64,000 nt of DNA from Psammoneis japonica. Taxonomy: Eukaryota. Of the stretch, positions 4,854 to 33,805 are shown piece by piece. The stretch is from the NCBI GenBank assembly GCA_008632985.1, contig QPGO01000016.1, positions 158,840 through 222,839 of the forward strand, read 5' to 3'. The stretch's first letter is position 1. Each line of letters opens with the position of its first letter. The translations under genes were made by a program, and so were the position numbers. The notes under the pieces were generated by a model. The model was not told the origin of the DNA and did not search any database. It saw nothing but the letters and a program-made list of their open reading frames with translations.

Positions 4854-7585
4854 GGCGACGAGAAGTGAATAAGGTCGACGAGAAGTGAATAGAAGTAATA
4901 AGGTCGTGTTCACAGATGCTGATTTCTGATTTTATGGAGAGCGGTGAGATCTTGGTGAGATCGCGACGACTGACCCCCTTTGTTTTTGCCTTTTCTGGAT
5001 TCTTTTTCAGCATATGATTGCAAAAAGTGTAAAAATAAAGCATGATTTGATTTCTGTATTTATGCGGCGATTCTGGAAAAATCTTGAAACAACACGACAA
5101 TGGCCGAAATGCCGTTCATTCTCGAAAATTGAACATCGAGGCTGGCAAATTTCATCATAAGGCCTAAGTTCATTGTTCATATCAAAATCGATAAACTTAC
5201 GACGAAATTTTCCAGCCCCCATGTTCAGTTTTCGAGAATGAACGGCATTTCGGCCATTGTCGGCGTTGTTTGCACGATGATGCGCAGAACTCGCGGACAA
5301 GCCGTTTGTGATCTTTTCAATAAATCTTGTTAATTTTGCAAAACAAATTCTAAAATACTCCAAAAATGGCGAAAACAAGAGGGATAGTGGGAAAATCAAA
5401 TTTCCGCCTGTCCTACGTGGGGAGGAGGAACAATGGAATCTGAATATTCTACTCAACCGGTTGAATGGAATATTTGTTGTGCCAGACGATTTCGTAGCTT
5501 CTACGTGGGTCTTGAGTTAGAGGATGAAGCGTTGGAAGGAAGGCTGAAACTACTGGGTGCCAGGTGCCATCCGATTCTTTTTGTTTTGTTCTCGAGGCGG
5601 GAAGAGAATGATATTATCTGCAATGTTGGGTATGAATTAGAAGTACATTTTACACCGGAGGTATGTGAATAGCAGCGAACTTTTTTTCAGGATCGCCTCG
5701 CAGACCCCAAGACCCATATGTCGGTGGAAAGCTCTCGACGAGCTGAACAAGGTCAAATGCATGTTGTATCGGTCGGAGTGAGCGGAAAGCGAATGTTTGT
5801 CGTTGAAAATTTGGTATTTATTTAAGGAAAAATAACGGTTATATTCGCCTTTTTCTAATTGATTTTTGTATTATAACAAACATACTCGTATCATAAATTT
5901 GACATTTAATCCGGAGTTCCGAAATCTCATACAGGATTGTACACCACATAAATTACTTGTGGGACACCTTGTTTCTATGCTTTGCTCTTGCTCTACAGCT
6001 CTTACAACTGAAGACATCGAAAAAAGGCTTTCGTCAGTCGCTGCAACTGGGTGTGTTTTAGTGACTGATAAAAGCCGATTTTCGATGAGTGTTTTTGGTG
6101 TCGAGATTTTTCAATGGCAAGGGCAACTTCGCTGCCATTTGCATGCCTCCGGCATTGTCTTGCTGCAAGCTGTGTGGCAGGCACCGGCATGGATTGAAGC
6201 TGTGGACGACATCAGCGACAGAAAGTGCAACAAGAAAATGCATGGTTTTGCACACCACACCAACTCGACAATGACGACTGGACAGCAACTCCTTGTGTTG
6301 TCTAAAAGATGCAATGGAAAGGCCGCGCCGTGCTGTCCATCCTGGCAACGGGTCAACAAAGTGCGAGCAAAATCCTTGTTTCACGGGTCCTTCTCAGTGC
6401 TTTTCCTCCCGATGCGGTCATTCGCCGCAAGAACCTCGTGACCGCAGTTCGCGTGGTGGGTCTCAGTGGAGCATGCCTTGATCTCCTTCCGGAAGAAGCC
6501 AGTGATCACCAGTTTGACCACCGGATCACGGACCAAACGAATCCTTGAAGCAAGGTGGCCTGTGTCCGTGGGGTGGATGCAGAACAAGAAAGGATCTCTG
6601 AGGAAGTGAGCAAGCACCCATCACTTGCTTGTCTTGCACGGTCACACATTTGCAGAAGCACATGAACTCACGACACCTGGGGCATCGTCCCAATGAACAG
6701 AGAAATGCATGCACACCAGTGCAGCGAAAGCACACACGATTCAGAACAAACACAGAAAAACATGTGAAGCTGAAACCCACTGGCGTCGACCCAATTCCTT
6801 GCAGTTGCATCTCATGCATGGCAAATCACAGCAGCACCTGCAGCATCGATCGGAAAGCAGAGCACATTTGTCGATGATGAGCACACAACAGTTTGGCAGA
6901 GCGCACAGTGATGATGACACAATGTGCGATGTGCTGCAATCATCCAGGCATGCATCAACCGTACGTTGACCTGTCTGGTCTCTGCATTGGCTCCCATGCA
7001 ACGCCCCATTGCTCCATGCTGATTTGGCCGTGGCAGTGATGCAAACCAGCATTCATTTTTGGAACATTTGAAGCTGGCACGTGCAATTGCAAGTGTCCAG
7101 ATGGCCGTTGTTTAAGACAAATTTGTTCTCATTCACACAAGACAGACCTCGACATGCACAGGGATGGAGCACATGGTTTGCTCCCATTTGCGCTCTTGCA
7201 GGGATCAACAACCTTTCACAAACAGCGTTAAATCTCACCACGACACAACGCACATTCGCTCATGCAAAGCATGCGCACAGCAGGTTGGCACCAACAGTGA
7301 GCAACACAAAATGATCATGGCTGGTGCAGATTGGACAAAAGAGTTCAATGTTTCAATGTTCAGATGCCAATGAAGCTGCTCTCTCTAGAGAGAGAGCGTG
7401 CCGCTAGCTTGAACAGCAGTGCACCTTTTGACAATGTCACTCGTTTGAACAGAAGCAGCTTCGTCAGTCCTCCAATCTAAAGTGAATCTTGCATTTCAAA
7501 AGTGCATTTCGATGCGTGTCACTTGTCGCTCTGCGGGAAGGATTGAGGACAGTGGCAATGACATGCCAGTTGAGATCTTTCTGCT

Positions 7586-9237
7586 TCATTTTTCTTGTGA
7601 CGCTTTACCCGCATTTGTCGACAGTGACATCGCGGCAGTTGCAGTTTGAGCTTTGCTTGTCGACAAAGCTGGTTTGGCTGTTGATTCTTTCGTGATGGTC
7701 GGCGTGACGTTGTCAGCAGTCTTGGTGCTTGAATCTCTTGCTTGGGTTCCCGCATCCTCGGCAATCGACAACTGCTTTTCCTTGTCTGTGGATGCAGATT
7801 GCGCACTTGCATCCTCAGGCGTTGAAGACGCACTGGCGCTCTCAGCAGCACCGGCTCCTTCCTTTGAGGCCTCCTTGGGACGGCTTTTTCCGGTGGTTTT
7901 GGGTTTTCTTTTTGTGGCCTTGACTGCCTTTGAACCTGGCGCCGCTGTTTTAGAGCGGTCTTGTTCCACAGCTGCAACATCAGTGTGCGCGCACTTGAGA
8001 CCCGCGACAAACACTGGATCCTGCACAACTTCTGGGCACTTGAGCAACATTTGCTTCAGCTCCTCCCATGCTTGGACTTTCGTTTCTGCCATGAGAGCCT
8101 TGTGCAAAATGGCAATGCGTTTGTTGGTGTGTTCTTCTTCGACTGGTGCTCTCTCTAAATTGGGCAAAACTTGTGTTGGAAGAATTGCGTCGGCGCGGGG
8201 CATTCCATCCAACATGCAATGCAATCTAGCAGGTTCTTTTGGTTGAGGCTGTCCCGGTGTCGGGCTCTTGATTGTCACTTGCACCACACCCGATGCCACC
8301 AAAACATCAACAATTTGTTGCAACACATTGGGTCCCAGCACAACATGCCCACCACGTGGCATGCAAGACTCTCGAGATGATTGAAGTGGTGGGAGATTGC
8401 ACTCCAGTTGCTCAAGAGAAAGCGGCCCGTCTGCAAAAGAAAATGGAAGGAAGAGCAAAATTAAGGTGGGCTTCGTGTGTGGAATTGTTGATCGACAACA
8501 CAAGTCAACTTGCACGTTTGCAGCAGGGACATTGTGCAATGCGACGTTTGCACTGCAACTGGGTCTGCAAGGGGCATGTGCGGTGTCACAGGAACAGCAG
8601 CACGTGACGCATTGCTGCTCGTGTCAGCTGCGACTTTGCACTTCTTGCTCGTGGGTTCAAGAGGCGGAGTCGTCGTGTTTGCATGCTTCTTGTCACTGAT
8701 TCCTTGACTTGCCCCTTTCTTGGCTTCTACGTCGCTTTTGTTTACGCTGGGTTTTGATGCAGTTGACGATGCTGGTGCAGTTGCTGCTTTCTGAGACACA
8801 GTTGGAGTCGTCTTGTCAGCGGTCGACACACTGGACTTCTCGAGAGGCTTTGCACTGCTTGCAGCAGCAGGTTTCAGCGCAGAAGACGACGAATGCTTGG
8901 TCACATCAACTTCAGCTGCAGCCGGAGCTGTGGTGAGGGACTCGTCATTTTGGCTGACCTCGAGTGCCGACTTCGCCTGGGGCAAGTTTGGGTTTTTGTC
9001 TTTCATGGATTCAGAGACGCTTGAGATGTTCTTTTTCTCATCTGAAACAGAAGGAGTCTTCATTGTGGAATTGACAGCAGGATTGCCATTGGCAGAACAA
9101 GAGGCAGAGGCTGCTGGCCCGGTCGTCATGGTCAATCTTCGATTGTGCAGTGTGCACTTGAAACTGCCACTGCGCTGTGTCGCGCACCAATCCACCATGG
9201 TTGACGGTTGACGGTCGATCGTCATGATCTCCCACAC
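7586..9237 (-). pseudogene. Degenerate coding remnant, A/S/T/K-rich with a small globular segment; identity unknown
   Basis: Overlapping ORFs 7586-8539 and 8461-9237 with protein-like composition and no Tyr. No family motif recognised. Confidence 0.4.
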
Positions 9238-9999
9238 TCTGCTCTTTTCTTTTGTGGGCCTGGCTAGACCTGGAGCTGCCGGCTGGGGCCTGGCATGCTA
9301 ACAACGAGAAGCACACCCTCGCGCCAATCCAATCAATCCCATTGAAAGATCATTTTCACTTGTTTTAAAGATCACATCACAAAAATGGAAAAGCAGATTG
9401 AACGCTTCGCTGCTGGCCGGCCATTGTCTTCATCACCATGGCAAAAACAGAGTGATGGCTGGCAGCAACATCTGCTCAAAGCGAAAAACCTTTTGATCAA
9501 TGATGAGGGATGAGAAGCCATTTCTCACATCCTTCTTGTCCTTCTTGTGTTCAGAGGAAGGTGCCAAGACAGCTGGCTGGTTGGATCTTGTTTTCTCCTT
9601 GTCCCCTGCCAAAAAAGAATGAGGGTGATGTTGTTTGTTAAAGTGCTGAGTGCCACAGCAGAGTTGTTTGATGCAAAGAGCGCAAAAAACCTCTTCTTTT
9701 GACTCAGTTTTTATTCGGAATGGAGAACATGCACACACTGGGGAGGAAAGGTGCCCAAACATTTTTGCACAGCCACCCATTGGCAGCCCAGCACACCAGC
9801 CACAGTGATCAATGCAAGCAACCTGCTCAAGTCAAGGAAGAATTGGAAAACACCACGGGGAGGGAGCACCAGCGCCATGTGCCAGATTGTCAGCAACATG
9901 AAAGCTGTCCAGCAAAACAAAACCCAAAGTCCAATTTTAAGTGCTGCTGTGCTTCCACCCTGCAACTCCGGCAACAAGCTGGCCCACACTCCCAGTGCA

Positions 10000-12900
10000 C
10001 TGGGTGCAGCAGGAGCACACAACAATTGGCCAAGATCGGCATCACCCTCTGGTGATGCCGCTCCAAAGTGGCTTGCGATGGTGCACATGCCTCTGGCAGC
10101 CAGACGCCGGGCCTCTCGAATGCTCGACTCAAACATTGGTTTTGCCATGGCGAGCCAGTTCCGGAGTCTGTGGGTAGAATGGGTGAGATGTTCATCCACC
10201 AAAGGAAACAACTCTGCTTGATCCCGGGCCAAGCACTCATCTGCCCCAGAGCAGATCTCTTTAATCTCCACCTCTGCATCCCGTCGTTGCGAAGACTTTC
10301 TCGTCTCTGAATCGTGTCCGTGCACTGCATCATTGTGGGAGTCCCACAATTCCCGCCATTGGGACCACACGTAACTGCCAACAGTTGCCGCCCAGTCCAA
10401 TCTTTTGTCTTTATCGGATGGAGAACAATGCAAGCCAGAAGACCGCAAATGCAACGTTTGTGCCTCATTCCACCTGTGGGAGAAATGCCCGCTGAAAATG
10501 TGGTGCCAGCCGATGTCGTCTTGAGAGTGAAACAGCTCTGTGACACTGTGATGGACGTTGGTGGAACACAGCAACTCCTTGTTGAACCAGCCTTCCAAGG
10601 CATGCAACAACAGGTCTTGCATGGACGGGGAGGTGTGCATGTCATCACATTTCTTCCACAATCCTTGTGGGAACGTGCGCCGCCACGACACATTGTGGGC
10701 ACAACGCAGCATGTGATCTCTGTCTTCGAAGGGGTGTTGGCAGTGTGTGCAACAGTTGGGGCGTGCAGGATCATGTCTGTGGACAATCTTGTTTGTTGGC
10801 AGGAGATCCTGAACCAACTTCACGGTGCTCACCTTTCGTCGGATGTTGCAAGACATCAGTTTGGAGTGAACTTTCCAATCTATAGAGTCGCACACTGGGT
10901 CAGACCAACCGCACTTCTCCTGCATGTGTTGGATCAGAGCTGGGCTGGAAGCTTCATGGCGGAGGACGGATTTAAATTTCGAGTTCACCGAAGCCAACTG
11001 GACATTCAGCATTGCATTGCAATGGGGCATTCGGGGAGCCATTGAGGTGTCTCCAGTGTGTTGGCCCTGAAACACACCTGCCAACCCATCGGCTCTAACA
11101 TTCACTTTTGCTGGGAACGAGAGGGACTTGGATGGAGTGTTGTCATCCTGATGACTTTTAATCCACTTCATGTTTGCTGCGTTGCTTTCAAGATGGCAGT
11201 CACATTGGGCCTCCAAACTTGTTGGTGAAGCGAAGATTTCGTGGACAACGTCCCAATCCGGCGCCACCGTGTTGGCGACATGATTCCGACAATGAAAATC
11301 TTGTTGTCTTTGTGAATCATCAGCATCCAAAGGAAGCGGTGGAGGAGAATGAAAGTTGGCAACATTGCGCACCAGAGAGGAATTGTCACAACAGGCAACC
11401 ACACTGTGTGAAAGACAACAGTTGCAAAAATCCATCACCCGGATGAGAAAGCGGAGAACTGACAGCAATCTGCGTGCTTCTGCGCGACACGAGGACGGTC
11501 AAAATCCAAAAACACAGCCCTGCACAATCCACCAGAATCACTCCGTTAACCGCTGGCGTCCAGCCAAAGGTGCCATTAAAATGCAAGACGGAACCATCAC
11601 TCCCTGCTTCTGCACGGAAGCACCCAAGGGACTCCGCTGTTTCAAATGCCGACACATGCATGTGAAGTGCACTGAACAGGGTTGACTCCCACAACGACAA
11701 GGACTGCAGCCATTTGCAAAAGTCCCCAAGGACAGGAATTGTTTGAGGCAACTTCACTGGGGATGCCAGGGATCGTGCGTGCCATCTGCCATCTGGTGTC
11801 GTGTCCACCATGACAGGTGATGCCAATGGGGATAGATCGGGAACTGTTTCCAACTGCTGAAGAGTTTCAGCACACTGTCCTTGACTGGAAACACTTGAAA
11901 ACCCACATCAGAGCGGACATGCAAAAACTCTTCGGAAGGCTCACAATGTGCCGGATGAAGCATGCGCATCATGGAGGCAGGAACGGTCCATTGACCCAAA
12001 GGGGTTCGGAGGGTGGAGGCACCTTCGTTGCACAACATTGTTTCCAGGCACAAGCAGACGGGCATGCCTGTTCAACTGGATTGAGTGACGACATGCCACT
12101 CATGAGGGAAGTTTGCCCTTTCAACTTGAACTCGTCTGAGTGTCGACCATCGGGAAGAGTGACGTCTGAAACAGCAAGTGCCCGTGGGAACAGCCTGCAA
12201 CAATTCACCCACCTGATCTCTTTTTCCGAGAAAAGTTTAGAATCCAGCACCACATCCATGGCACATTGATCATTCTTTCGTTGTGTGGGAAGGACGCCCG
12301 TGAAGTCCAGTTCAAAGTGAGCGTCAATGCGGGCGAGAAAGGATCTCAGAGACACAAACCATTTGGACTCGGAGTGCAGCAGTTTTGTGTGGACGTCTTG
12401 CAGAAAACTTGACCCTGTTCCAAGCTGGAATTGCATCCACGCCACTGCAATGCGGGACAAAGCATGGGGTTGCCCAGTTCCACGCCAGTGTCTGAGGAAC
12501 TGCAAACATTGAGCGACACCCTGCTCCACATCAAGAGATTGGAATCCTCTGCCTCCCAAGGTGTGCGGTCCGAATAAAACATCCCGCTTGGTGTTGCGGT
12601 TGTGTCCGCACTTGGCAAATGTAGTTCGCACAGCCTTGCATTGAATCTCAAGTAATTCCTTCAGTTGAAAATGTGCACTTGGAAGGATGTGCATGGTTGA
12701 GGCCAAGCAGCACGCAAAGTGGTGAGTCCATGCCTCATGACGGCCCAATGGACACAACCGGAGAAACAGAGAAATGTCGTCGCTTTTTGTTTTTGGTGCT
12801 TTGCACTGAGTCTTCTGAGTGCCTGCAGGAGATTTGCAATGTCCCAGTGTCTTGTGAGAGGAGCAAGCGGAAAGTTGGGTGCTGGATCTTTTGGTGGATC

Positions 12901-15900
12901 TGTCAGCGGAGTGAATTTCAATGTCGATCTCGTCATTGTACGCCCGAAGGTGTGGCTCTCCATCAGCAGTAAAATGCCATTCAATGGCATGAAATGAGCA
13001 CTTTGGGAGCTCCAGCTCATGTCCTGCCGCATCCAAGAGGTCGCACCACAGCTGATCATCTTGCTGCATTTTAGGAACTGGGTCCAGCGCATCTGGTTGT
13101 GGGTCAGCACAGAAGGTGTTCACTTGATTCAAAGTGTCATCAACACACCCTCTGGCACACATCCGCATTGAAGCTGTCCTGTCGGGAGTTTCAAAGTGAG
13201 CCCCATGAGCTTGGCTGTCAAATGGCCAAAACAAGCTGTTGCAAATTTGATTCCAATAAAAGGGAGAATTTCCGCTGCCCTGGCCAGTGCCACAGACAGG
13301 GAACTCATCCGAATGGGAGTGAGATGAAGTTGAGAGACCAAGAACTGTCTTTAACCAGCATCTTGCGTCATGTAAAGCAGCGTTCGCCGTCTGAGTTGCT
13401 GATTTGGGCAGCATGCCGTTGCTGCGGCTTTCGAGTGCTGTTAAAGCAGGAATGTTGCGATCACAACATGAGGCACAATCTCCATCACTGTGAATTGCTG
13501 TTTTCCGGGAAACTCTGCTGATCTCGAGCATCAGTTCCTCAAGGCACACCGGAGCATGAGCATTCAAAAAGGGACGCGTCCCGCAGATGCCTGGATTGCA
13601 CAGACGACGGTGTTCCATGTTCTGCGCCAAGACTCTCCATTTCACGCTGGACGTCAATTGAAAATCTGCCTCGCAGACATGGATGACTCGGAGACAATGT
13701 GTCTTGTTGTTTCCCGGCTCTTTGAAAATCATGACGTTGACAATGTCCTTCCACCTGTTGAACGAGCACCCCCAACGTAGAGCACAGTTTAACAAATTCA
13801 AGCGAGTCCCAATCAGCCGCTGTTGAATGTCATTCAAATGCTGACACTCGGACGTGAGATCGCCTTTGGGGGTGGTGGAGCTTGAACAAGAATGAGCTGC
13901 GCCATTGCTTTCCAGTGTCCCAAATGAAGGCCCGAGAACATAGAAGTGGATGCAGTTTCCTTCCACACCTTGAGTTTCCCTTTAAGATCCGATTCAGTCA
14001 GGAAGTCAGACACCAACGCTGGTGACCGTCATCGAAGATGTTGAACGAAGAGAGCAGTGGCGCTGTTGAGAGAGGAAGTGTCACATTCTCCGTCTAAGAT
14101 CAGGTCAGCCACAACCGTGTCACCTTCGCACCCGAGATCCACGAACAGGGGAGGAACGGCAGGAGGTGCGCCATGTGCTTGTCCAAAGTGTCGCTGATTC
14201 CGAGAACACAATGCTGCTGAAACGTCGTCTGGGATGTCAGTCGTGATCCAATCTTTGCACTCTTTAGGACTGGCAGCCGGGTTGCGAGGGACCTGCATGC
14301 CATTGACTCCTGCACCATGTTTTGCTTTGCACACGTTGATCTTGCAAAACAACCGGGCGGTTTCTTCTGACTTCTGCACGTTCCGAATGATTTTAGCTGA
14401 TTTGCGGGCGGCCGCTGTCCCATCTAGGTCCAATTTGGCAAGCTTCTCTGCCAGTTCCCGTTCACGTTGCTCGATGCTCTCCTTTGCAACTGCCTTGCAT
14501 TCGGCCTGTGCCTTGCGCAAGGCAACCTGACATTCATGAAATGTCATTGGAATGGAGAATGAGCCCATCAGCTTTGAACGCACCTGCTGGATCTGGGCGA
14601 CGTGATCAAAACGGTTCCTCATCATGGAAAGAACACAAGTGAGGATGTGTGCTCTGCAGCGGAGATCTGCCAACTTGACCGACCAGTCGGGTTCACGGTG
14701 GGATCGACACTTTTTCGCGGATGCTGGGGAGAACTGAAGAAGATCTTGGTCCAAGCGTTTGGCCAATTCGTGATTCAGAGCATCAGACTCTGTCAGCTGG
14801 GTGGATCGTTCCAAGACAGAACGGCTCTCAAGCATGGGACCAATGGCGGTTGAGTGCAAGGTGACCTGGGGTTTGGATGAAGCCAGATCGACGGTGGGAT
14901 TCCCGAACAGTTCCATCGTGTCAAAGTCTACAAAATGTGCCCGATGATCTGACGTGACACGGCATCCAAATGCTTCACATCTGCCTGGGCGAGCCGCAGA
15001 CAAAGCTCCTGGAGATGCTAGAACATGGCCCAGTCTTTTGGAGCCTCTTGTGCATGTTGAAAATTCGGAAACACCAAGGATTTGGAACAGGACGTCGGAC
15101 AAATTGAATCGTTGGGCAAGTGTAGCTGGGGAGTCTGTGTCCAACGAGAAGTCCGCATTGAAGTCACCAAACAAGATCACTTCTTGGTCATTCTCCGCAC
15201 GAAACTCTTGGAGCGTGCGCGACAGGTCCGCACAGAAGGCTTTGCGGGGATCAGTGGAGTTGCGACCCTGTTGATGCAGCAAATGCAATTGTTGAGCGCA
15301 GGCTGTTGTCTTCCCTGGTTGTTTTTGGTTTTTAGCGCAGACTCTGTGGCATGATGCAAACATGACTTGTCGCCCATTGCGACCATCAAACACCTGAACA
15401 GACCACCGACCTAACGGATCATGCTCCTGGGAGCGGAGTCGGGCAGAGATGGAATTGCATGAGACAAGTGCAGCACCACCCGGTTTACATTGGGTAGAAA
15501 AGGGGGTGGAACTGCACGAAAACGTGCTTCGCCCGTGGAGGAGGGACTTCAAAATCGCAGACCGACACACAGAGAGCACATCGAACTGGGTGGCATCCAG
15601 ACACATTTCTGAAATGCCAACCACGTCCGCTTGAATTTCGTTGGCAATCTGACAACAACCGTTGAGATCCCCACCACACTTGTCAAACTTGCATCCATTG
15701 GCGTTGAAGGCACAGAGTCTAGTGTGGTGTGGCAGTTTCGACTGAAGTTCATGTCCAATTGATTCATTTGTCTTGAGGCAGGAAAAATCGATCCTGCGAT
15801 CTGCCGAAGGAGCACAGTGTCTGCCGTCCAGTGTGTGTTGCCATGCAGTCGAAGGTGCAGCTGAAGAAAGCTCGCTGTTCATGGTTGGGCCTCGCTCCTC

Positions 15901-16107
15901 CAAGGAGAAGACTGGGGCTTGTAGCGATGCAAAGGGAGTGAGGCAGTTTGAAAGGAGAACCTGCAATGTCGAGAGGTGCGGCGAAAAACGTGTGCCAACG
16001 TGTGGGACTCTTGAAGTGCAGAGGCAATGTCGGGAGGACGCCTGGTCTGTTGAGGGGGAGGAGGCGGCGAAGTCCAACCCCTCGCTAAAAATCCTTCTCT
16101 TTGTCAT
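10000..16107 (-). pseudogene. LINE ORF2: AP endonuclease, reverse transcriptase, RNase H, C-terminal CCHC finger; frameshifted and hypermutated
   Basis: APE: FNANG, GISE, ILFGDFNA, SDHR. RT: KEPGN, LRVIHVCEADF, SCCDR, GTGQGSGNSP, GCVDD. RNase H: GSDGSV, CCDNSSLV, WIKSHQD, NVRAD. Finger: CTHC..EDRDHMLRC. Confidence 0.9.
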
Positions 16108-17477: not shown

Positions 17478-17700
17478 CAAGCAAATCCAGCTGCCGAGTG
17501 GCTCAGCCACTCACAGCACTGGCATGATGACAACCCAACGATCCAAAGATGCTCTTGTGCCTGCCACAACTGCTCGCAACAAGTGAGCGCCATTGGAGGG
17601 AAAGACAACGCTTCCCTCCGACAACACGTCACAACGGTTGACTCAGCACCAGCCGTCACCAACAGCACTCTAACTAAATCCGATGCATCGGATTTCTTTC
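17478..17700 (-). repeat. 3' LTR of the Copia element
   Basis: Gap-free alignment to 24448-24670. Confidence 0.92.
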
Positions 17701-21945: not shown

Positions 21946-22158
21946 TACCTGATCGTCTGTTCGGACGTGAGTGGCACGCGTGTTTGTCCGTGCCGCAGAG
22001 ACTCGTCATGTGGAAGCAGCAATTTCACAAATGCAACGACAGTCCCCATGAACCAACGTTTCTTTCGAACGATGCGGCTGGCCCCCGCCCCAATGAAGCA
22101 GCCACAATGCAAACTGGATGAGGCTACAAAGCAGGGTCCAGCTTGGGAGTCAGCTGTG

Positions 22159-24142: not shown

Positions 24143-24447
24143 GGTGAAACTTGAGTCATTGTGGCATCACAAGACAAAGCAGTTGTGTTGGAAGCAGTGC
24201 ATCAAAACTTTGACGTTCACAAAATCGCGTTGACGACACGCGCAGGCCTTGAGAGTGCGGAGATGTGGCCTTGTCTCCCACTGCTTTGCGCATGCACTGA
24301 TGCGAAGGCATCACTCAACGGTGAACACCCTCAGGTCAGTCGGCATTCATCGTCAAAACTGTGCCATCATGACACAACCGTCACAATCACGTTGTTCATC
24401 GTTTTTCATCGCCAAACCGCGGAGTGCGGACTGTGGCTCTGACAAAG

Positions 24448-24670
24448 CAAGTGAATCCAGCTGCCGAGTGGCTCAGCTGCTCACAGCACTGGCATGACAA
24501 CAATCCAACAATCCAAAGATGCTCTCATGCCTGTTGCAACTGCTCGTAACAAGTGAGTGCCATTGGAGGGAAAGACAACGCTTCCCTCCGACAACACATC
24601 ACAACGGTTGACTCAGCACCAGCCGTTGCCAACAGTGCTCTAACTAAATCCGATGCATCGGATTTCTTTC
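24448..24670 (-). repeat. 5' LTR of the Copia element
   Basis: Gap-free alignment to 17478-17700. Confidence 0.92.
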
Positions 24671-24907
24671 GTTGCTGGGCATTTGTCACCGCCGCGATTC
24701 GTCGTGATGACAAAGTGTTGCTCGTGTTGGAGGGAAGTGATCCATTCTGCCACGTTGACATTTGCAATGCGATTGTTGTGGTTGTCAAGAATCTGAACGT
24801 CTTTGTGGCAGGCAAACAAAATTTGCTGCAGGACTTGCAAATGGGCGGTGGCAAGAGTCGTGGGCTTGCACAACGATTCTTCACCACGAGTTTCAAATCG
24901 GAGGGTG

Positions 24908-25473
24908 GACGTGTTCCAGTCCCAGGTGACACACAAAACGACAATCGATTTTGAACACAAATCATGCATCCATTAGTGCATGCAGCATTTTCATGTAAAA
25001 CACTTGAGCGGATTGGCTTTTGTGGGCGTCTGGAGCATCAACAATTGTGAAGAATTAAATGGTTTTTTGTGGGGTGTCAAATTCCTCATGGGATGTGCAT
25101 CATAAACTTCCTCAGTGGACTCAATGCTGATTGCACCACCGCACTCTTCATAAAGAAATTTCTTTGTAAGTGGAAAATGCACCAAAATGCATCGTAGAAA
25201 GATGTGCTTGTTTGACATCCAAACGACGGCAACAATTTCGCCGAAAATCATCCGCTGTGTTGCGATTTGTTTGTCGCGATGAAAAACATTGATGGCACAA
25301 TGACAATGATTTTGCAGCACTCACACGAGTCTTGCCAGTGTTGCAAAACATTAGAATTTGGACAAATCTACACTTTTGGTGGTGAAAAACCGTTCGCAAG
25401 TCAGAGACCGCGCAAAAATCGCGCAAATGTCGTTTTTGTGCACGATTTGGGTCACGTGCGGCTGGAACACGTC
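24908..25473. mobile_element. 566-bp MITE, copy B (TA-depleted), inserted in LINE ORF1
   Basis: Same TIRs as copy A; 4-bp TSD GGTG; colinear with copy A. Confidence 0.93.
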
Positions 25474-27419
25474 GGTGATTTCTTTGAACTTGCGCTCAGT
25501 TGGCTTGGAAGAAAGCTCAATGGAAGACTGGTCAACAGCAACATCGTCTGCCATGATGGCATCTTTGTTGCGAGTTGGGGTGGGGCTGCCATCAGCGACG
25601 GAAGAAGACGCCATGGTGGTTGGCTGTTCTGCGGGAAACCTGGCATCAAAATCACGCAGGCAATGTCAATGCGAGTGCGCGCAGAATTGTGAAAGCTGTC
25701 CAGCAAGAAGAGGGTTTGTTTGTGCAGCCCCATCTGGCAGATCCTCATGCAAAGCAAAACTGGGAATGAATCAAGGCATGTGGACCTGCCAACTCTCAAG
25801 CTCCACCCCATGGCTCTCCTCTAAAAATGGATCTCAAAAAAGGATGTGGACAAAAGAAATCATTCACTGTTGATGTTTTGTTGCTTTGATGAGATGGTTG
25901 AGCCAAGAAAGAAAAAAGGTGGCTGTCAATTGGATGCTCTGTGGCAGGCAAGAAGGGCTGATGGTCAGTGACAGGCTGGGGCATCAACACCTCTGTGTTT
26001 CACCACAACAAGCCAAGTCAATCATTGTGCAGCTTGACAAACAGTGAGTGTGAGGAAGCCTGTGGTCACCACATCTGACTCCACAAGAAGAAAAAAACAA
26101 AATGAGTTGTCAACTTTGTCCTGAGCCTGTGATCCATGGGTTGCGCAGTTTGCAACAAAACACCGCGGATCATGATCCAGAGGATGCAGGTGTTTCAGTT
26201 CCCATTTTGTGCAACAATGCAACAACTGCATGTGAGCTCACAAGAAGGGAGGACAACAATTGACAGAACTTGGTTTTTGGCAACTTTGCTGACTGAAGAA
26301 TCAATTTGTGGGTCCTCTGTCTCTCTGCTTGAGTCATGACAAGAAGACAGGGACCTCATCTCAGCAGGAATCATGTCATCAGATTGAATGCTGAGTTCCA
26401 CCATGGTCACTTCAGGTGCACAAGAGGGCTCTGAGAAGAAGGTCCTCAGGTTCAAAATGACACTGCACCACGAATGAGCAGATTTTGCAGCATGAACCCC
26501 CAGAATGTGATTTTGAATTGTTGATGGTGGCATGCTCTCACTGTGGAACAGCAATGGAACAATGTTCTGAATGATGCAATGTGGAAAAATTGAGAATCAA
26601 TTTGGCCAGCAGTCAATCATTTTCCAGCCAAAGAAATGACCAAGGCAGTTGCAAATTTGGAATGTTTTCTGTGACAAAATGAGGGTAATTTGTTGTCACT
26701 TCACTTGGCCAGCAAAAGTCATTGGGTGCAATTTTGTGCAAAGACCACTTGCAAATGAAGTGGTCAATCCCAAATGAACCCCGAGGACTTTTGTCCAACC
26801 AACCCATCCTGCAGTGGAAGGCTGTTGCTGGGTCAATGGTGAACAGCTGTCACTGAAATTTTCAGACGTCCAGCATCTCCAGATCACTGTTGCTGTTGCC
26901 ACAGGAAAAAATCATTGTGGCAGTCAAAATTCTTAGACAAATTGCATTCAAACAGATGAACCTCAGATTTTTTCCCTCTGAATTTTGTGGATGGCACAAG
27001 CAGGTCAATTGTTTCTCACTCCGCACCTGCTGCATTTTTGAACAGGCCTGCTTCTCCCCCAGAACAACTCCTCATGAGCAAACACAGCAGCAGCGAGAGC
27101 AAAATGAGAAAAGTGGAGGTGACCCCAGTGCTTCTGCACTGGAGGTGGAGGGGTCACCATGCCAGCATCATCATTTTGAAAGACACAGTGAATTTTTGCA
27201 TGAGATTTGGTCCAATCGCTCCAAGGGCCAAGGCAAGTCAAAAACACAATGTCAGCACTGTTTGTTGCATTCACCATTTGCCAAATGCATGTCTGCTGAA
27301 TCAAGCTCATGACGCACAAGTCACAGTTTGATTCATTGTGGCTCCAAAGTTGTTGCCAGCATGACTTGAATTGGAAAAACCCATCGGTTTGAAAAACACA
27401 CGCATGCAATCCAGACACA

Positions 27420-27830
27420 ACATGTGCACACATCAGTTTGGACAAACCACCCTTTTTGTAAAAAACAACACAGACCCCAATGCATGTGTGTGTGAAATTG
27501 GACAAACACACATCAGTTTGGACAAACCACCTGCAAAAAAATCATGTTCATCCCAGTGCACACACACACATGAGAAATTGGACAAACACACTTCGGTTTG
27601 GACAAACCACCCTGCAAACAAACAATCATGACACCAATGCACTCACACACAAGAAATTGGACAAACGCACATCAGCTTGGACAAACCATCCTGTTCACAA
27701 AAAACATGGAACCAAACAAACACATGCAAGAAATTGGACAAACATGCTGTGCAGCACATCAGTTTGGACAAACCACCCCGCAAATGAACAACATTTGTCC
27801 CAATGTGTGCACATGAGAAATTGGACAAAT
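27420..27830. repeat. Imperfect tandem array, ~75-85-bp unit (AAATTGGACAAAC...CAGTTTGGACAAACCACC)
   Basis: TTGGACAAA recurs about 10 times in alternating short/long spacing. Confidence 0.85.
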
Positions 27831-28341
27831 CTGCACAGTGCTCCGATGCATCTGCAGCACAGCATGTGGACTCTGCTGGCAGCCAGGGCTGCAGGTGGTG
27901 CAGGATGACTCTCTGTTCAAAAATCAAATGATCGTCGGGCCATCATCGCGATCGCGACACTCATGACTGTTGATGATGAGAGGTGGCGGAGGTTCCTTTT
28001 CACCGCGACGAATCATCTTTGCAAGCAAAACATGGACATGGATCCAAACCTGGATTTGTTGAACAGTCTGTTTGTTGGGGAAAACACAGAAGACGTTTGT
28101 CGTGCACTGCAAGCCGGCGCCGATTTGAACCATGCTGCATTTTGGGAAGATGACGGTGCTCCGTTTCAAGTCCTTTTTCATCTTGTTGGCGTTGTTCCAA
28201 CGCCAAGAAATGTCGATGCAAAATTGCAACTCTTGCTGGATGCTGGGGCACGCGTGAATTTTTGACATTCAAAATGTGGCTGGACCCCCTTGCTCCACTT
28301 GTGCCATCATGGGCGTGTGTCCACGGTTCGGATCCTTGTGT

Positions 28342-30135
28342 CACACTGACAGACATCCGAGATGGGGAGCACACTAACTTGTGTTGGACAGACTGGCGTG
28401 GACAGCATGGAGAGATCTGATGATCTCTCCTTTGCTCACTTTCTTTCTCATCTAGCACACGATTGTCATCTGTCCCAGATGTCCGTTAGATTGTCCCAAT
28501 GCCGCTGGTCTGCAAGGTTGTGAGCAGCAGTGTGCTGTTCCTCTTCCTCTGTGCTCCTCCATTGCAATGCCTGTTGTGTGATTTGGCGACCTTTTCTTCG
28601 TTGAAATCGTCATCACTGTCACAGCTGTTTTTTCACCTCTCGATTTGTGATCAAACAACCACCGCAGAACACATGCCAGAGCTCTGTGCAGGAATTTGAT
28701 TTTTTTTCCCGCGCAACCATGGTGAACAAAAATCAAGACGCCGTCAATTTGACCAAGATCAAGACGATGCGGGTTGAATTCAGCCCACACAATCGCTCAC
28801 CCGATGCCCACATTTTCCTGAATGCCTTCATTTGGATGAGATCCCTGCTCCTGAAGATCTTTTGGATGGATTCACCCCTCAAGGCCTCAAGAGCGATGCT
28901 GTCACTGTCCTCCGACATGAGATCGTTCACAATCTCATCATCCCTGAAGCCACCCTGACCAAAGATCTTGCGCGAATCGGGCCGATCATTGAAAAGGCTC
29001 CTCTCTTTGTGGCCACCCCTCAAGGCTCCTTGGTTTGCCTGAACCTCAGTGCTCTTCAGAAGACTGTGATCAAGGCGATCTCAGAGAACGACGACACCAT
29101 GCATGCATGTGTTGGGACTCTGCGTTTCTGTTTCAGCCCTCGTTTTCGGCATTGTGATTGCTGGGATGATGTCTCCGATGACCCGCATCCAGATCCACCG
29201 ACTGCTTCAAGTTCTGCATCCCCTCCGGTTGCTGCTGCAGGTCTCACTCCTGAAGACTGTGCCAAGGCCTTGGCAACTCATTTGCCTGGTCCAAACGGGG
29301 TGTGGGCAAGCTGTGGTTGGTGGGTTGAGGACCATTTCGAGCTCTCATGCACATGCTGAGTCCAAGTTGTGCCCAGATCCCGCTTCTGCTGCCAGTGGCT
29401 GCAACACTGCTGTTGCATCTCTTGTTGAAGATGCACTTGCTGTGGACTCTCGGATGGACCCTGCGGATGACAGAGTTCTTTGAACATCAAGTCTGCTGTG
29501 TCCACCACAGAACCAGTGGGTGAGCCATCTGCAGCTGTTGATGCCAGGTCCCTTGCAATTCCCACCGAATCGGCAGCACTTCCTGCCGACGTCCATGCCT
29601 GCCTGCTTGAGACCCCAAAGTTTTTTGTTTCAGCGGGCCACTCTGTTGTTCCATGCAAAAAGGGCCACACTCACCTCAAGGATGGACTGCTCTCTCTTGC
29701 CAAGGTTGCACCCAAGCTGCTTGCCACCTGCATCCCGCCGTCATCGGATGCTTGCGGATGCCGCCAGCACTCTGTTGGTTGTCAAGTTGATTCGCACTTG
29801 GATTTGTGGTTTGGCCGTCGTTGACTTCGGACACACGATGCCGCCATTCTTTCCATCATCCAAGCAAGACCAATGGAAGCAGGGCAGTTGTGAAAGAGGG
29901 CCACGGAGTCTTGCTGCCTTCTGCCATCACGTCTCTTTCCTCCGTTGTCAGGACCGTTGTCGTGTCCATTTGCACTTTTCATGGCACTCTGGACCTGTCC
30001 ACCATCGCTGATGATGATCCTTCATTTTCTGATCAAGGGAGGGAGCAATGTTGTGCAGAGGAAGTGTGCACGATTGATCATCACACCAACTCTTCCAGTG
30101 TGTCGCCTCTTTCCTTCACTGTCAAGACCGTTGTG
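28342..30135. mobile_element. ~1.8-kb unclassified insertion in the ankyrin gene
   Basis: Removal restores the ankyrin frame. Flanked by a GTGT(C) direct repeat with CACA...TGTG ends. Contains a decayed unidentified ORF at ~28720-29800. Confidence 0.6.
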
Positions 30136-30610
30136 GTGTCGAGTGGCATTGGTGCGGCAGTCAACGCAAGAGAAACCAGGCATGGTTTCATGCCTCTGCA
30201 TTTCACCGCAATGAATGGATGTGGTGATGTCTGTCGGTTTCTTCTGCAGAACAATGCTGACGTGGATTCGAAGTCACTGCAGCGGCAGATGGCCGAACAG
30301 CTCTTCACATTGCCGTCAGCCGCTTGGATCGAGAAAGCATTGTGAGACCACTTTTGGAGCATGGAGCGAATGTGAGTGCCACAAGCGAGAGAGGAGGAGT
30401 CACGCCATTGCACATGGCTGGCAAGTGTGGCAGTGAAAGCCTTGTGAGACCACTGTTGGAGCACGGCGCTAATTTGAATTCCAGAGCCGAGAATGGGTTG
30501 ACACCATTGGACTGTTCCACCAAATGTGGCAACCACGGTGCCACCTCTGCCTTGATGGAAGCGCATGGGCAACAGCTGTTGTCGCACGATGACATTCCGC
30601 GAGCGCTCTG

Positions 30611-31754
30611 GGACACACGGCATTTTGTCGCATTTGGCGACATTTTCTTAAATGAATTGATGATTTGTCGCGAAAAGACGCGAACTGCGACAAAATGTCC
30701 GGGTTGGCGACAAACGGGACAGAAACATTGTTCAATTGAGTCACAAAATGATTGATGTCATTTGTGACCAACCTGCACTTTGGTGGTGTCGTTTCAACAA
30801 GTGGGGCAATTGACCAAATTTGGCGATCGATGTCATCGACAAAAATTCACCCGACAAAATTTGTCGCATCCAACAAAATTTGTCGCACCCGACAAAATTT
30901 GTCGGACATCCGACAAAATTTGTCAGATGTCTGACAAAATTTGTCGGCATGCGACATGACAAGACACGACACGACACGACAAGACACGACACGACAAGAC
31001 ACGACACGACAAGACACGACACGACACGTCACGACAAGACACGTCACGACACGAGGACTCACGAACGAAACACCCACGCCCCCCGCACATGCTGACCGCT
31101 GACGTCTCCGTTGACACTGCCGTTGTGTCTCTTTTGCACGATGATGCAAAGCGACGATCATGCCACTCTCGGCGGTCTCCATGCTCTCGTCAATGCCGGG
31201 ACAACATCGCACGCTTCTACATGGTGCAACGGAGTGCGCCGGCATGCATTGCTGCACTGTGCCTTTTGTCAGCACGGCTGGGCACTTCTGAATGTTGGGG
31301 AGTGTTGCATTGTCGGCATGTTGCAAACGTCTGTCTGTCAGTGTTTGTCGGCTCTTGTCGGCTCTTGTCGGCGTTTGTCGTACATTGTCGGGGTTTGTCG
31401 GGGTTTGTCGGGGCTTGTCGGGGCTTGTCGGGGTTTGTCGGGGTTTGTCGGACACGACAAAATTTGTGGCACGTCCGACAAAATTTGTCATGCATCCGAC
31501 AAAATTTGTCGCATGTGCGACAAACTTGCCAAAACATCGGTTGACAAGTGCAGTCTTTGCCGAAAGTCAAACTCATCATGTGGCACTGCAGTTGATGTGA
31601 CGTTTGTGTTTGGGACACGTCATCACCAATTGAATGATGATTTTGTCTTGTTTGTCGCCAACGGTTGAAATTTGTCTCAAAGGGCGTTTTTCATGACAAA
31701 TCGTCCAATTCATTTGTGGGAATGTCGCAATTGGCAACAAAATGCCGTGTGTCC
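30611..31754. mobile_element. Non-autonomous TIR element (PIF/Harbinger-like by 3-bp TSD) filled with mini- and microsatellites
   Basis: TIR GGACACACGGCATTTTGT (18 bp perfect, ~70 bp imperfect); TSD CTG; removal restores the host frame. Confidence 0.88.
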
Positions 31755-33805
31755 CTGGGCCCATGTGTTGGCCAAGGTGGGGAGCAGGAGCACAGACGTG
31801 TCTAGAGTGGGCCTTGTCACAGTGGTTCAAAGCAGCATCAGCTTCGTAGAAACATTTTTTTTTGCACCAGCGCAGAACTGTGCGCATGTGTCTGGTGCAC
31901 AAAAATCATGCCACATCAACCATTTTCTCCAATCTTCGGCAATGGCGGCGTTTGTCGGTTCGCAGCTGTTGCGCTGCTGAAACCATGTCAATTGTCATCA
32001 AACCTGTGGCACGTCACTTGTCACCCTCTTCTCAATTCATGTGTTCCTTTGAAACTGCGCATTCTTTAGCCTCAATCCAGACAATCAACAACATCAACAC
32101 AAGGTAAAAATCCAAAGCAGATGCGATTCCTCGGGACAAGCATGCGCGAACTTTTGCGTCTGAGCCACTGGATGCCGCCGCTCATTGCATCTACTTTTAG
32201 CTTCTTCACGGTGTCAGCATCAGGCGCGGTGTCGAATGAGTTTCTTGATTCACTTGTCACTGTTGTAAAGTGCGGCATGTCTGTGCGGTTCGCAGTTGTA
32301 CGAAACCAATGACCCAAACAGGACACACGCTGATCCGATTTTGCTTCCTAAAAATCATCAAAATTGGGAGTCCCATGACCCAATTCACCCCGCCTCTGCT
32401 TTTCTAGCGCCTCTCCAATCACCTGTCGTGTGTTGCCATCCCCTGATTCACACATGTCCTTCATGAGATCCATGATCCCATCTGCGCGGTTCTCCTTGTT
32501 GTTTAGTTTGCTTGCAGCTTTTCGCTTGTCTGCTCAAATCTCTCCAGAACTCACAGCTCCAGAAATCCGTTTTGTTCTTGTCCAACTTGACAATCACCTT
32601 GTCCGCTTTCACCACGCGTTTCGAAAATTCCGGGTCAATGTCATGCGACAAGCTGTCCTTGGTGAGGCGATGAGATTTCCCGCTCAACTTCTTGACGACC
32701 AAATCAAATGAACACTTGGCAAAGGCACAAGCCACTTGATCTCGAGGAATTGATCTGACACTTGGTAAAGGCACAAGCCACTTGATCTCGAGGAATTGAT
32801 CTGACGCAAGAAAAGGGAAGAGGCGCGCAAACAGTTGCAAACGGAGAGTTGAAGTTGCCGGCATCAAAGAGAACCAACCAATGGGTGCAAACTTTTGTCC
32901 GGGACTCACTGCAGGTGGATCTGTGGGGATCAACACTGATGGTTCTCTGGCTCGGTTGGCGCCAGTGTTTCTTCTTCGGCAGCCAATTTGCTTTCTGCGT
33001 CAGACTCTTTGTTGGCCATGGTGTGACTCTTTTCCACACTCTTGAGCACCCACCCAGAGATTGTTGAGGACAGGTCATTCCAAAAGAGAACCAAAAGAGC
33101 AGAGAGTGAATGAATGAGGAGCACTGCTTGTCAACATGGTGTCATGTGGCCACAAAGCAGTGCAAGGCATGAGACGAATCTCAACTTTCAATGAACAGTC
33201 ATTGCAAGGCATGGCACTGGGATGCACAGATCAAATGGTGTGGCTCGCGCCACTTTGCCAGGGGAGAATCAGGCGGGACAGTCTGTCAGATGCTGCTCCA
33301 GTTGTTGTTCTGTTTTCTGCAATGCAGCTTTCACCACCTGTTCTTCCAATCAATCCACTTCATCTGATGCTGCCAAGGGGCCTTGGTGTTGACAGATCCC
33401 CCCATCAAGGTTGGATCTTGCTGCTTCATTGGCACTCATCAGTTGCTGTGTGCCAATGGGTTGCTCTTGTTTCTTGAATTCCTTGTTGATTTCCTTGGCA
33501 CTGATTGCGGCTGCTTGGGCTGCTTCTTTGACCTTTTCACTCAGTTCATTGGCAGCTTCGCGAGGGTGGGGTCATTTGCAATTTCAAATTCCAGCCTCCC
33601 GCACAATTCTGCGGTTTTGAGTACTGTCATGAGCACCTCCGACACAGACATCTATGAGTACCGGTATTTGATGCACAAAGCACAAAGATGACAACATCAC
33701 AACATCATGCATGATGCGTGAGCCTTTCAACTGTTTCAGCACGGTAAAGGAGCATCGAGAATCTGCATCAAACCATCAGAAGAAGCATGGTGTCAGCAAA
33801 CGACA

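Follow-up and report, generated by a model that had tools for sequence, protein, structure and literature searches.

Analysis of a 64,000-nt stretch of the genome of the diatom Psammoneis japonica (assembly GCA_008632985.1, contig QPGO01000016.1, positions 158,840-222,839 of the forward strand; hereafter the window) confirmed that its transposon-rich blocks are hypermutated. The change runs from TpA to TpG or CpA, is specific to TpA, falls equally on both strands, is local, and took place in DNA. It is highly probable that the underlying process is a TpA-specific A:T-to-G:C hypermutation of transposon islands, acting after the elements are in place. In islands made of LINE-like, Copia and MITE-like elements, a low-copy segment and ordinary coding remnants, each TA would be turned into TG or CA, at random as to strand, until 80-100% of the TA steps are lost, with neighbouring genes and intergenic DNA spared.

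TpA loss is confined to transposon-rich blocks

A sliding-window scan of TpA observed/expected ratios (o/e), a check proposed in the preliminary description of this DNA and run here within the window, separated depleted blocks from normal flanks: in 2-kb windows the ratio was 0.02-0.18 over 6001-22000 and 24001-34000, whereas the flanks gave 0.54-0.74. At 500-bp resolution there are five to six depleted blocks, 30.5 kb in total, bounded at about 6005-22406, 22973-33700, 47790-49150, 58310-61040 and 63545-64000:

6005..20395, unstranded: TpA-depleted block, first part, as far as the N run; 83 TA in 14.4 kb, TG 1384, CA 1357, 500-bp TA o/e 0.03-0.20
20396..20984, unstranded: run of 589 N in the sequence
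20985..22406, unstranded: TpA-depleted block, continued; 8 TA in 20985-22000
22973..33700, unstranded: TpA-depleted block, part 2; 44 TA in 23001-33700, TG 1079, CA 1090, 500-bp TA o/e 0.00-0.27
47790..49150, unstranded: small block between genes, TpA and CpG both depleted; 8 TA and 9 CG in 47700-49000, TA o/e 0.06
58310..61040, unstranded: small block, TpA and CpG both depleted; 6 TA and 13 CG in 58400-61000
63545..64000, unstranded: block continuing past the window end, TpA and CpG both depleted; 3 TA and 4 CG in 63500-64000

The stretch 6005..33700 had been described as one unit; its depletion stands, and the island of normal TA at 22-23 kb corresponds to an insertion of 566 bp (22407-22972) rather than to a gap between two blocks. 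The left block edge is sharp, TA density falling over about 100 bp near 6005-6070. A GT90 Pfam match in block 63545-64000 was weak, under Pfam's cut-off, and did not enter the evidence.

Pooled, the blocks (30,514 bp) contain 152 TA (5.0/kb, o/e 0.08), compared with 1248 (41.2/kb, o/e 0.59) in the genic DNA of the window (30,302 bp; Fisher p = 1.2e-220 for the TA counts), so that TA is indeed, as first described, nearly absent from a transposon stretch adjoining normal genes. TG and CA are plentiful there (o/e 1.59 and 1.60, against 1.19 and 1.12 in genic DNA), and their joint excess of +55.5/kb is close to the combined shortfall of TA (-36.2/kb) and CG (-15.7/kb). With 3027 TG and 3053 CA in the blocks, both strands are affected, as had been claimed, and equally so.

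Genes and intergenic stretches are normal in the one 64-kb window compared. A genome-wide neutral bias is not the cause, because seven inter-ORF stretches near genes retain TA (o/e 0.59-0.83). The depletion is TpA-only: the blocks show no shortage of AA (o/e 1.25, versus 1.13 in genic DNA) and only a slight one of AT (0.89 versus 0.97). The AA ratio disfavours Pol-eta-like error-prone patch synthesis (WA to WG), one of the mechanisms first put forward. Such synthesis, GC-biased gene conversion and descent from TA-poor families would all raise G+C, which is 50.9% in the blocks and 47.3% in genic DNA; however, the effect is limited to TpA and relatives of the elements are normal in TA and Tyr (below), and we regard all three as hardly credible.

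Direction and DNA-level nature of the change

Two retroelements in the blocks have recognizable coding sequence:

17874..19457, minus strand: hypermutated Copia-type RT/RNase H ORF (Pfam RVT_2, E 5.7e-13)
9714..17510, minus strand: degenerate LINE-like non-LTR retrotransposon, ORF2 in at least three ORFs (Pfam Exo_endo_phos, E 5.7e-10, in 14032-16206, minus strand)

RVT_1 and zf-RVT gave weak Pfam hints in the LINE region, which we did not use as evidence, and ORF 16338-17510(-) had no similarity to ORF 22955-24166(-) on comparison. At E<=1e-10 the LINE ORF matched 930 representative homologs, of which many are 1800-2100 aa long.

Conserved Tyr columns read Cys or His in 13 of 14 cases in the Copia ORF (Cys 10, His 3) and in all six in LINE ORF 14032-16206(-) (Cys 4, His 2), or 19 of 20 combined (Cys 14, His 5). 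The Copia ORF retains 2 Tyr against 20.7 expected, and the LINE ORF none in 725 aa against 20.3 expected. First-position A-to-G replacements in the Copia ORF are preceded by T in 5 of 5 checked. The preliminary description had read the conserved Tyr (TAY) of both elements as replaced by Cys or His, and its quoted peptides bear this out: all six Copia strings occur in ORF 17874-19457(-), at positions that are Tyr in a 23-sequence alignment consensus, and the three LINE strings in 11972-13981(-). A family baseline itself poor in TA and Tyr would have undone this reading, but Copia relatives are normal in both. Among 68 related Copia loci from metagenomes, TA o/e was 0.38-0.91 and none was TpA-depleted (<0.3); of the two search patterns, one included Tyr, which biases the scan towards unmutated copies and lets it say little on prevalence. 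The Tyr columns, the relatives with normal TpA and paralogous copies within the blocks together support a direction from TA to TG or CA. The copies are as follows:

22407..22972, plus strand: 566-bp MITE-like element, unmutated copy, present in the block as an insertion (termini, empty site); 47 TA
24908..25473, plus strand: hypermutated copy of the 566-bp MITE-like element; 9 of 47 TA left
17478..17701 and 24448..24671, both plus strand: repeat copies (pair 2), 224 bp, 91% nucleotide identity, 100% in purine/pyrimidine code

The intact copy has an 11-12 bp terminal inverted repeat, GACGTGTTCCAG / CTGGAACACGT(C), and a CATGA duplication at its flanks; its empty site is found in a run X1 contig, which links 22401 to 22973 with 5 letters shared. 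Read from these termini only, with no transposase seen, the element is probably a MITE-like DNA transposon. The mutated copy (pair 1) differs from it by 68 mismatches, 39 of which are TA in the intact copy and TG (21) or CA (18) in the mutated one; the reverse occurs 0 times. From intact to mutated, 49 of the 68 are A>G or T>C, and 39 of these 49 lie within TA, the A-to-G enrichment at TpA that the first interpretation led one to expect. Identity in purine/pyrimidine code is 97.2%. In pair 2 all 20 differences are transitions, with 7 CA-versus-TG double differences. Copies of one family were mutated independently. Purine/pyrimidine self-BLAST found no further repeat pairs in the blocks.

Depleted DNA also includes coding sequence of other kinds:

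29791..30752, plus strand: ankyrin-repeat coding remnant in TpA-depleted DNA, not a transposon domain (Pfam Ank, E 9.6e-18 at 30261-30752 and 3.2e-05 at 29791-30342)
32451..32999, minus strand: CS-domain coding remnant in TpA-depleted DNA (Pfam CS, E 4.4e-06, 28 bits versus a cut-off of 21.3)

Matches to IBR_2 and EF-hand were weak and were not counted as evidence. The intact and mutated MITE-like copies, the strand symmetry and the hits in the ankyrin and CS remnants show that the change occurred at the DNA level and indicate that it followed insertion. This bears on an alternative in which transposon transcripts undergo ADAR- or ADAT-like A-to-I hyperediting and the edits are fixed by reverse transcription and insertion. 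The identified elements are mostly retroelements, the 14-to-5 ratio of Cys to His at Tyr codons is a mild coding-strand excess, and a 5' U preference of ADAR is mentioned in the Discussion of a preprint on Bigelowiella natans (10.64898/2026.01.13.699255). However, TG and CA are equal over 30 kb, with no transcribed-strand bias; mutations are present in an element that has inverted termini and a target duplication, in the ankyrin/CS remnants and in unclassified low-copy DNA; nested elements are depleted continuously; and the B. natans mutations arise in resident single-copy DNA. We therefore consider RNA hyperediting very improbable.

An assembly or basecalling artefact, with a TpA base modification in silent chromatin misread as G or C by a long-read platform, would fit a Copia RT ORF that is open for 528 aa, but the LINE is also split into several ORFs. 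Conflicting strand calls should often yield CG, yet CG stands at 1 of the 47 pair 1 TA sites in the mutated copy. The k-mer contigs of run X1 (word depth about 58) give the same TA-free sequence and contain 62% of the sampled 31-mers of 24001-34000, although X1 is perhaps the assembly's own sample, and so not independent against a platform artefact. Public proteins from other ENA contigs, of this species or another (P0195, P0156 and P0297), carry the same Tyr-to-Cys/His pattern, and the B. natans preprint bases its result on Illumina data. There is accordingly very little chance that the depletion is artefactual.

Site context, CpG decay and targeting

Survival of TA depends strongly on its neighbours (chi-square 146, p = 1.9e-31). 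Relative to genic TA, a proxy for the ancestral composition of the elements, the survival index in the blocks was 0.023 for RTAY, 0.058 for YTAY, 0.127 for RTAR and 0.435 for YTAR; surviving TA is mostly YTAR, and RTAY is nearly gone. RTAY-class sites would thus be preferred over YTAR. Context seems to act on the site as a whole and not on one strand. Among pair 1 sites, 12 of 26 with a 3' pyrimidine and 8 of 21 with a purine had become TG (p 0.77); change to CA showed no dependence either (13/31 versus 4/16, p 0.34), and His at Tyr codons was not tied to a preceding purine (2/10 versus 3/9, p 0.63). A strand-specific 5'-TAY model failed, giving the predicted direction at 10 of the 18 mixed-class sites of pair 1.

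CpG has also been lost. CG o/e is 0.06-0.2 in sub-blocks, indicating conversion of CpG to TpG and CpA, and 16 of 40 listed differences from contigs are TG or CA in the window and CG in the contig. Deamination of 5mC, the usual cause of CpG decay in methylated transposons, has the same products but cannot remove TpA. Across 30501-31500 CG is normal (o/e 1.22-1.27) yet TA o/e is 0.03-0.09, and the correlation between CpG and TpA depletion inside the blocks is weak (rho 0.31, p 0.017). CpG decay comes on top of the TpA loss as a process of its own and does not account for it.

The preliminary description had called the process repeat-targeted, a "reverse RIP", which is doubtful in view of the following segment and the intact insertion:

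6160..9130, unstranded: low-copy hypermutated segment, with a TA-intact paralog or allele in runs X1/X2

Within 6202-6419, 12 listed sites read TG or CA in the window and TA in the run contig. A 2251-bp contig of run X1 has 18 differences over 6452-8701, and ORF 7589-8623(-) had no homolog among 4991 candidates. By word depth, which as taken from contigs is a poor measure of copy number, most depleted DNA is repetitive (hundreds to thousands) and the 566-bp family very high-copy (2800-9200), whereas 6668-8001, fully TpA-depleted, is at about single-copy depth (61-79, against about 58 for the near-identical 2251-bp contig).

A homology-dependent trigger, in which duplicated DNA is sensed (for example, before meiosis) and then mutated, as in RIP but with a chemistry of its own, is in keeping with the mostly repetitive nature of the depleted DNA and with independent mutation of family copies. 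Against it stand the unmutated copy of a very high-copy family inside a block, the depletion of DNA at about single-copy depth whose TA-intact relative elsewhere was not hit, and the single-copy NCLDV target of B. natans; we judge such a trigger improbable. Targeting would rather follow chromatin or silencing state, or recognition of foreign DNA, than sequence homology. The intact insertion in a saturated block could reflect episodic activity or simply a very young insertion; were activity episodic, a young insertion might stay unmutated in an old mutated block.

Known systems, candidate chemistry and implications

Fungal RIP (Neurospora and others) likewise wrecks transposons by dense context-specific transitions while sparing genes, with family copies mutated independently. 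It converts C:G to T:A, mostly at CpA, and creates TpA, whereas the change in P. japonica is the opposite, A:T to G:C with destruction of TpA, so that the contrast with RIP drawn at the outset is upheld by pair 1 and the Tyr columns. RIP is triggered by duplication; in P. japonica a high-copy copy was spared and low-copy DNA hit, as far as word depth, a poor copy-number measure, can tell. ADAR hyperediting of repeat-derived dsRNA and the A-to-I mRNA editing of the fungal sexual stage, by ADAT2/3-type enzymes, share the A-to-G outcome and the 5' U/T preference, but both act on RNA, and here the genome is changed, on both strands and including a probable DNA transposon. APOBEC3 similarly drives context-specific transitions against retroelements by deamination, giving C-to-U. 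Engineered TadA-derived adenine base editors demonstrate that adenine in DNA is open to deamination by an enzyme of the TadA fold.

The claim that no such pathway has been described did not survive. A 2026 preprint (Mettrop et al., bioRxiv 10.64898/2026.01.13.699255) reports the same hypermutation in Bigelowiella natans, with A-to-G/T-to-C change at TpA only. It appeared de novo in the integrated viral DNA carried by mutation-accumulation lines, at a rate of about 6e-7 per site per generation, and accounted for 230 of the 231 mutations in hypermutable regions; it was not constitutive but active in some lines only. TpA hypermutation is therefore not categorically new; the lineage, the targets and the near saturation are. 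Of the first interpretation as a whole, context-specific, both-strand A:T-to-G:C change at TpA in transposon-rich DNA stands; the absence of precedent does not, repeat targeting is doubtful and Pol-eta-like synthesis is disfavoured. Among the literature matches listed, the B. natans preprint alone describes such TpA hypermutation; a word search of the available text of a Phaeodactylum tricornutum (P. tricornutum) mutation-rate paper (PMC6604790) returned no TpA, hotspot or transpos-. DNMT4 is reported in many diatoms (PMC9998398).

The two systems share near-exclusive A-to-G/T-to-C change at TpA, giving TpG and CpA, and confinement to foreign or selfish sequence, the remainder being normal (for P. 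japonica, in one 64-kb window). Both have TpA-depleted, CpA- and TpG-enriched clusters; in B. natans the TpA-depleted CDS are enriched for reverse transcriptase and DDE domains. The hosts differ, P. japonica being a diatom (Stramenopila) and B. natans a chlorarachniophyte (Rhizaria), as do the targets (LINE, Copia, MITE-like elements and coding remnants versus NCLDV or virophage inserts) and the degree of depletion (near saturation, o/e 0.08, versus rho 0.45 in an NCLDV region). CpG decay accompanies part of the P. japonica blocks, which also show the RTAY-over-YTAR effect; in the main text of the preprint the words trinucleotide, context and flanking are absent. The real-time mutation data are those of B. 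natans.

Because TpA is self-complementary, A-to-G and T-to-C chemistry are inseparable by sequence alone. A tentative candidate is an enzyme that deaminates the adenine of 5'-TA in DNA, leaving inosine, which is copied as G at replication. Alternatively, TET/JBP-type oxidation (to 5-hydroxymethyl- or 5-formyl-uracil) or another modification of T in TpA could pair with G and yield T-to-C. The symmetry of TG (3027) and CA (3053) is consistent with this, and the site-level context effect fits recognition of a duplex site. In dinoflagellates, 5-hmU replaces thymine preferentially at TpA. The experimental B. natans study, however, proposes adenine deamination, with a putative ADAT2-like enzyme (10.64898/2026.01.13.699255), and thymine chemistry appears unlikely to us.

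Whichever base is attacked, the signature is likely the sign of a putative genome-defence enzyme. Conceivably, though we would not bet on it, diatoms and chlorarachniophytes share an enzymatic defence that mirrors fungal RIP chemically, converting A:T of TpA to G:C where silenced or foreign DNA offers a double-stranded RTAY-like site; it would either date far back in SAR or have spread by transfer, and its putative enzyme would be a natural DNA editor, either an adenine deaminase on DNA or a thymine modifier. Mutational genome defence by A:T-to-G:C change was before now the subject of one 2026 preprint on one rhizarian alga, and its saturated signature in diatom transposon islands means that it is not peculiar to one species or to viral inserts. 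A second lineage enables phylogenetic profiling for the enzyme, among genes common to carriers and missing from non-carriers. Context preference (RTAY over YTAR) can be read from far denser data in the diatom blocks, and the question now stands in a group that has genetic tools and is of great ecological importance. A natural A:T-to-G:C DNA-editing enzyme, if it exists, would be of interest for base editing. Hypermutation also masks transposon domains in profile searches and lifts local G+C, and ORFs are inflated in hypermutated DNA because TGA is the sole remaining stop.

Extent of TpA depletion and contents of the depleted blocks

In 2-kb windows, the observed/expected ratio (o/e) of TpA was 0.02-0.18 at 6-22 kb and 24-34 kb and 0.54-0.74 in the flanks, and resolution at 500 bp revealed more depleted blocks at ~47.8-49.15 kb and ~58.3-61.0 kb, together with one that starts near 63.5 kb and continues to the end of the window. 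The near-absence of TA beside genes with normal TA, reported in the preliminary description, was confirmed: the blocks (30,514 bp) hold 152 TA (5.0 per kb, o/e 0.08) and the genic DNA (30,302 bp) 1248 (41.2 per kb, o/e 0.59; Fisher's test, p = 1.2e-220). All nine peptide strings quoted there are also present. Since seven inter-ORF stretches beside genes have a TA o/e of 0.59-0.83, the depletion is not the neutral state of this genome. TG (3027) and CA (3053) are equally enriched in the blocks (o/e ~1.6), and their joint excess of 55.5 per kb nearly matches a TA deficit of 36.2 per kb plus a CG deficit of 15.7 per kb, indicating two flows into TG/CA, a major one from TA and a minor one from CG.

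The left block edge is sharp, within ~100 bp. An imperfect 185-bp palindrome (5087-5271) lies upstream of it, and a perfect 36-bp palindrome (34697-34732) just beyond the right edge of the big block. Pfam matches inside the blocks were four.

14032-16206, minus strand: LINE endonuclease ORF
17874-19457, minus strand: Copia reverse transcriptase ORF
29791-30752, plus strand: ankyrin repeats, not a transposon domain
32451-32999, minus strand: CS domain, not a transposon domain

Most of the 145 block ORFs of at least 90 aa had no match, and many block ORFs are open solely because TAA and TAG vanished. LINE ORF2 is spread over at least three ORFs, with relatives having a single ORF of ~1900-2000 aa. 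Degenerate tandem repeats of ~80 bp occupy 27395-27847, inside a TpA-free block.

The host is a diatom from outside the genera that are well sampled; among the flanking genes is an ALG9 mannosyltransferase whose best named relatives are all from diatoms (40-45% identity; top match overall 68%). An 851-aa ORF at 55495-58050 (plus strand), without a Pfam match, contains ~135-bp tandem units (56641-58013) that are 74-92% alike, and tandem repeats with a period of ~93 bp and ~90% likeness lie at 3673-4100 inside ORFs of both strands. Two diverged paralogous genes (45136-46481 and 61651-63004; 64% DNA identity, weak DUF4832/DUF4874 matches) have normal TpA despite duplication within 16 kb.

Direction of the change and its substrate

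When aligned to 120 public homologs (55-65% identity), the Copia ORF carries a non-consensus residue at 41 of 275 conserved columns. In 13 of these, Cys (10) or His (3) replaces a consensus Tyr, which accounts for 13 of the 14 columns where Tyr is conserved; the ORF contains 2 Tyr residues, with 20.7 expected. In the LINE ORF, aligned to 150 representative homologs, all six conserved Tyr columns read Cys (4) or His (2), and its 725 residues include no Tyr (20.3 expected). In Copia, five A-to-G replacements at first codon positions were checked, and in all five the preceding codon ends in T. TA o/e was 0.38-0.91 in 68 related metagenome Copia loci, none of them below 0.3, in a scan skewed to intact copies by a search pattern that includes Tyr. 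The losses at Tyr columns, together with these TA-normal relatives, indicate that the ancestor had TA and that the change is TA to TG or CA. This direction is the reverse of Neurospora-type RIP, and RIP was rejected because of its opposite chemistry. The Tyr to Cys/His pattern recurs in three public homologous proteins from ENA contigs (P0195, P0156 and P0297, the last with three cluster mates), so the signature exists outside the window as well.

Self-BLAST found two repeat pairs within the blocks. In the first (22407-22972 versus 24908-25473; 47 and 9 TA, respectively), 39 of 68 mismatches have TA in the first copy and TG (21) or CA (18) in the second, with no case of the reverse. The element has terminal inverted repeats of 11-12 bp, and a contig from public sequencing run X1 connects 22401 with 22973, five letters being in common; this contig carries the empty site, the duplicated target being CATGA. 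This anatomy fits a MITE-like DNA transposon better than an LTR, given that the element neither starts with TG nor ends with CA. If the element is a DNA transposon, editing of an RNA intermediate cannot explain the mutated copy; ADAR-type RNA editing was rejected, since the changes affect both strands and also a probable DNA transposon.

The second pair (17478-17701 versus 24448-24671) differs at 20 positions, all transitions, and seven sites read CA in one copy and TG in the other, as would be expected if one ancestral TA had mutated independently in the two copies. Such sites could instead come from ancestral CG; CG, however, is mostly kept there (12 and 9). After purine/pyrimidine recoding, the second pair is 100% identical and the first 97.2%. 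TG and CA are equally frequent, depletion runs on across nested elements, and the ankyrin and CS remnants are depleted as well, all of which points to a process acting on resident duplex DNA. A further short repeat is 78% alike, or 91% in purine/pyrimidine code, between 44015-44161, in the span of the ALG9 ORF (42903-44561, minus strand), and 49084-49229, at the edge of the 47.8-49.15 kb block.

CpG loss and copies in public reads

CpG is nearly gone too (o/e 0.06-0.3) at 25501-27500, 33001-33500, 47790-49150, 58310-61040 and 63545-64000, a distribution which suggests that only some elements may be, or may formerly have been, cytosine-methylated. Given that TpA loss is complete at 30501-31500 despite normal CpG, and that the two losses correlate weakly within the blocks (rho 0.31, p 0.017), TpA loss does not arise as a side effect of cytosine methylation decay.

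Run X1 contains 62% of sampled 31-mers from 24001-34000; it is possibly the assembly's own sample (library type not on record) and supports the sequence rather than proving it independently. At 80% likeness, 4141 X1 contig pieces matched the window, with changes from window to contig of A>G at 475 places, G>A at 545, C>T at 458 and T>C at 400, and transversions at 38-91 places per type. Among 40 differences listed with their contexts (2370 others lie beyond these), 12 have TG/CA in the window where the contig reads TA (11 lie within 6202-6419), so a TA-intact relative of segment 6160-6454 exists. A further 16 have TG/CA in the window and CG in the contig, one has window TA and contig CA, two have window CG and contig TG or CA, and nine fall in other contexts. 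Copies thus also diverge through CpG decay, an ordinary second source. Word depth was 61-79 over 6668-8001 versus 58 for a near-identical 2251-bp contig, and part of the depleted DNA seems low-copy, contig depth being a poor measure of copy number.

This 2251-bp contig, from run X1, differs from 6452-8701 at 18 positions; at each of the eight listed, A/T of the window stands against G/C of the contig, six being TG/CA versus CG, and the differences may reflect haplotype divergence through CpG decay. A contig from a second public run, X2 (~87% like the window over 7896-8670), omits 83 bases at 8431-8513, whose ends, CT..GC on the plus strand, read GC..AG on the minus strand. The X2 contig possibly derives from spliced RNA of a paralog that is less mutated, the kind of run being only guessed.

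Targeting, precedent and sequence context

The intact 566-bp element (22407-22972), from a family of very high copy number (word depth 2800-9200), is unmutated though within a saturated block, and apparently low-copy DNA, whose relative elsewhere retains TA, is saturated. These observations argue against a simple homology trigger, making the 'repeat-induced' framing of the preliminary description doubtful, and favour a regional or chromatin cue that would act in episodes. A very young insertion would look the same as a spared copy. The analysis supports the core of that description, namely a mutator that acts locally at TpA and turns A:T into G:C. The Pol eta-like candidate (WA to WG) given there was rejected, because AA is not depleted.

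The preliminary description's claim that the process had no precedent is outdated by a bioRxiv preprint on Bigelowiella natans (10.64898/2026.01.13.699255), the sole study of matching kind among the full-text literature matches listed; this kind of process has been described just once before, and recently. According to the preprint, 231 of 302 nuclear point mutations in mutation-accumulation lines fell in integrated NCLDV and virophage regions, and 230 of these 231 were A-to-G or T-to-C, all 230 at TpA. These mutations arose at ~6e-7 per site per generation and in some lines only, and TpA-depleted coding sequences were enriched in reverse transcriptase and DDE domains. The mechanism that its authors propose is deamination of adenine in DNA, with an ADAT2-like candidate but without proof; its main text makes no mention of diatoms or of wider sequence context. 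Judged by its signature, the present case is a B. natans-type process in another SAR lineage. It differs in that the diatom targets are transposons and coding remnants and in that the process has gone much further. Interest is high because the case makes three questions testable in diatoms, namely which enzyme acts, whether the chemistry is on A or on T and what rule governs targeting, and because it contributes a sequence-context rule.

The 152 surviving TA are non-random by flanking class (chi-square 146, p = 1.9e-31).

Survival index of TA in the blocks relative to genic TA, a mere proxy for the ancestral composition of the elements
RTAY: 0.023
YTAY: 0.058
RTAR: 0.127
YTAR: 0.435

ATAT is absent among the 152 survivors, and TTAA, TTAG, CTAA and CTAG are 3-4 fold enriched. 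A single-strand motif, 5'-TAY, was predicted and failed: the direction of the outcome showed no dependence on the flank in the small samples of the first repeat pair (47 sites) and the Tyr codons (19 sites). The indices are approximately multiplicative over both half-sites, and the context effect seems to belong to the duplex site.
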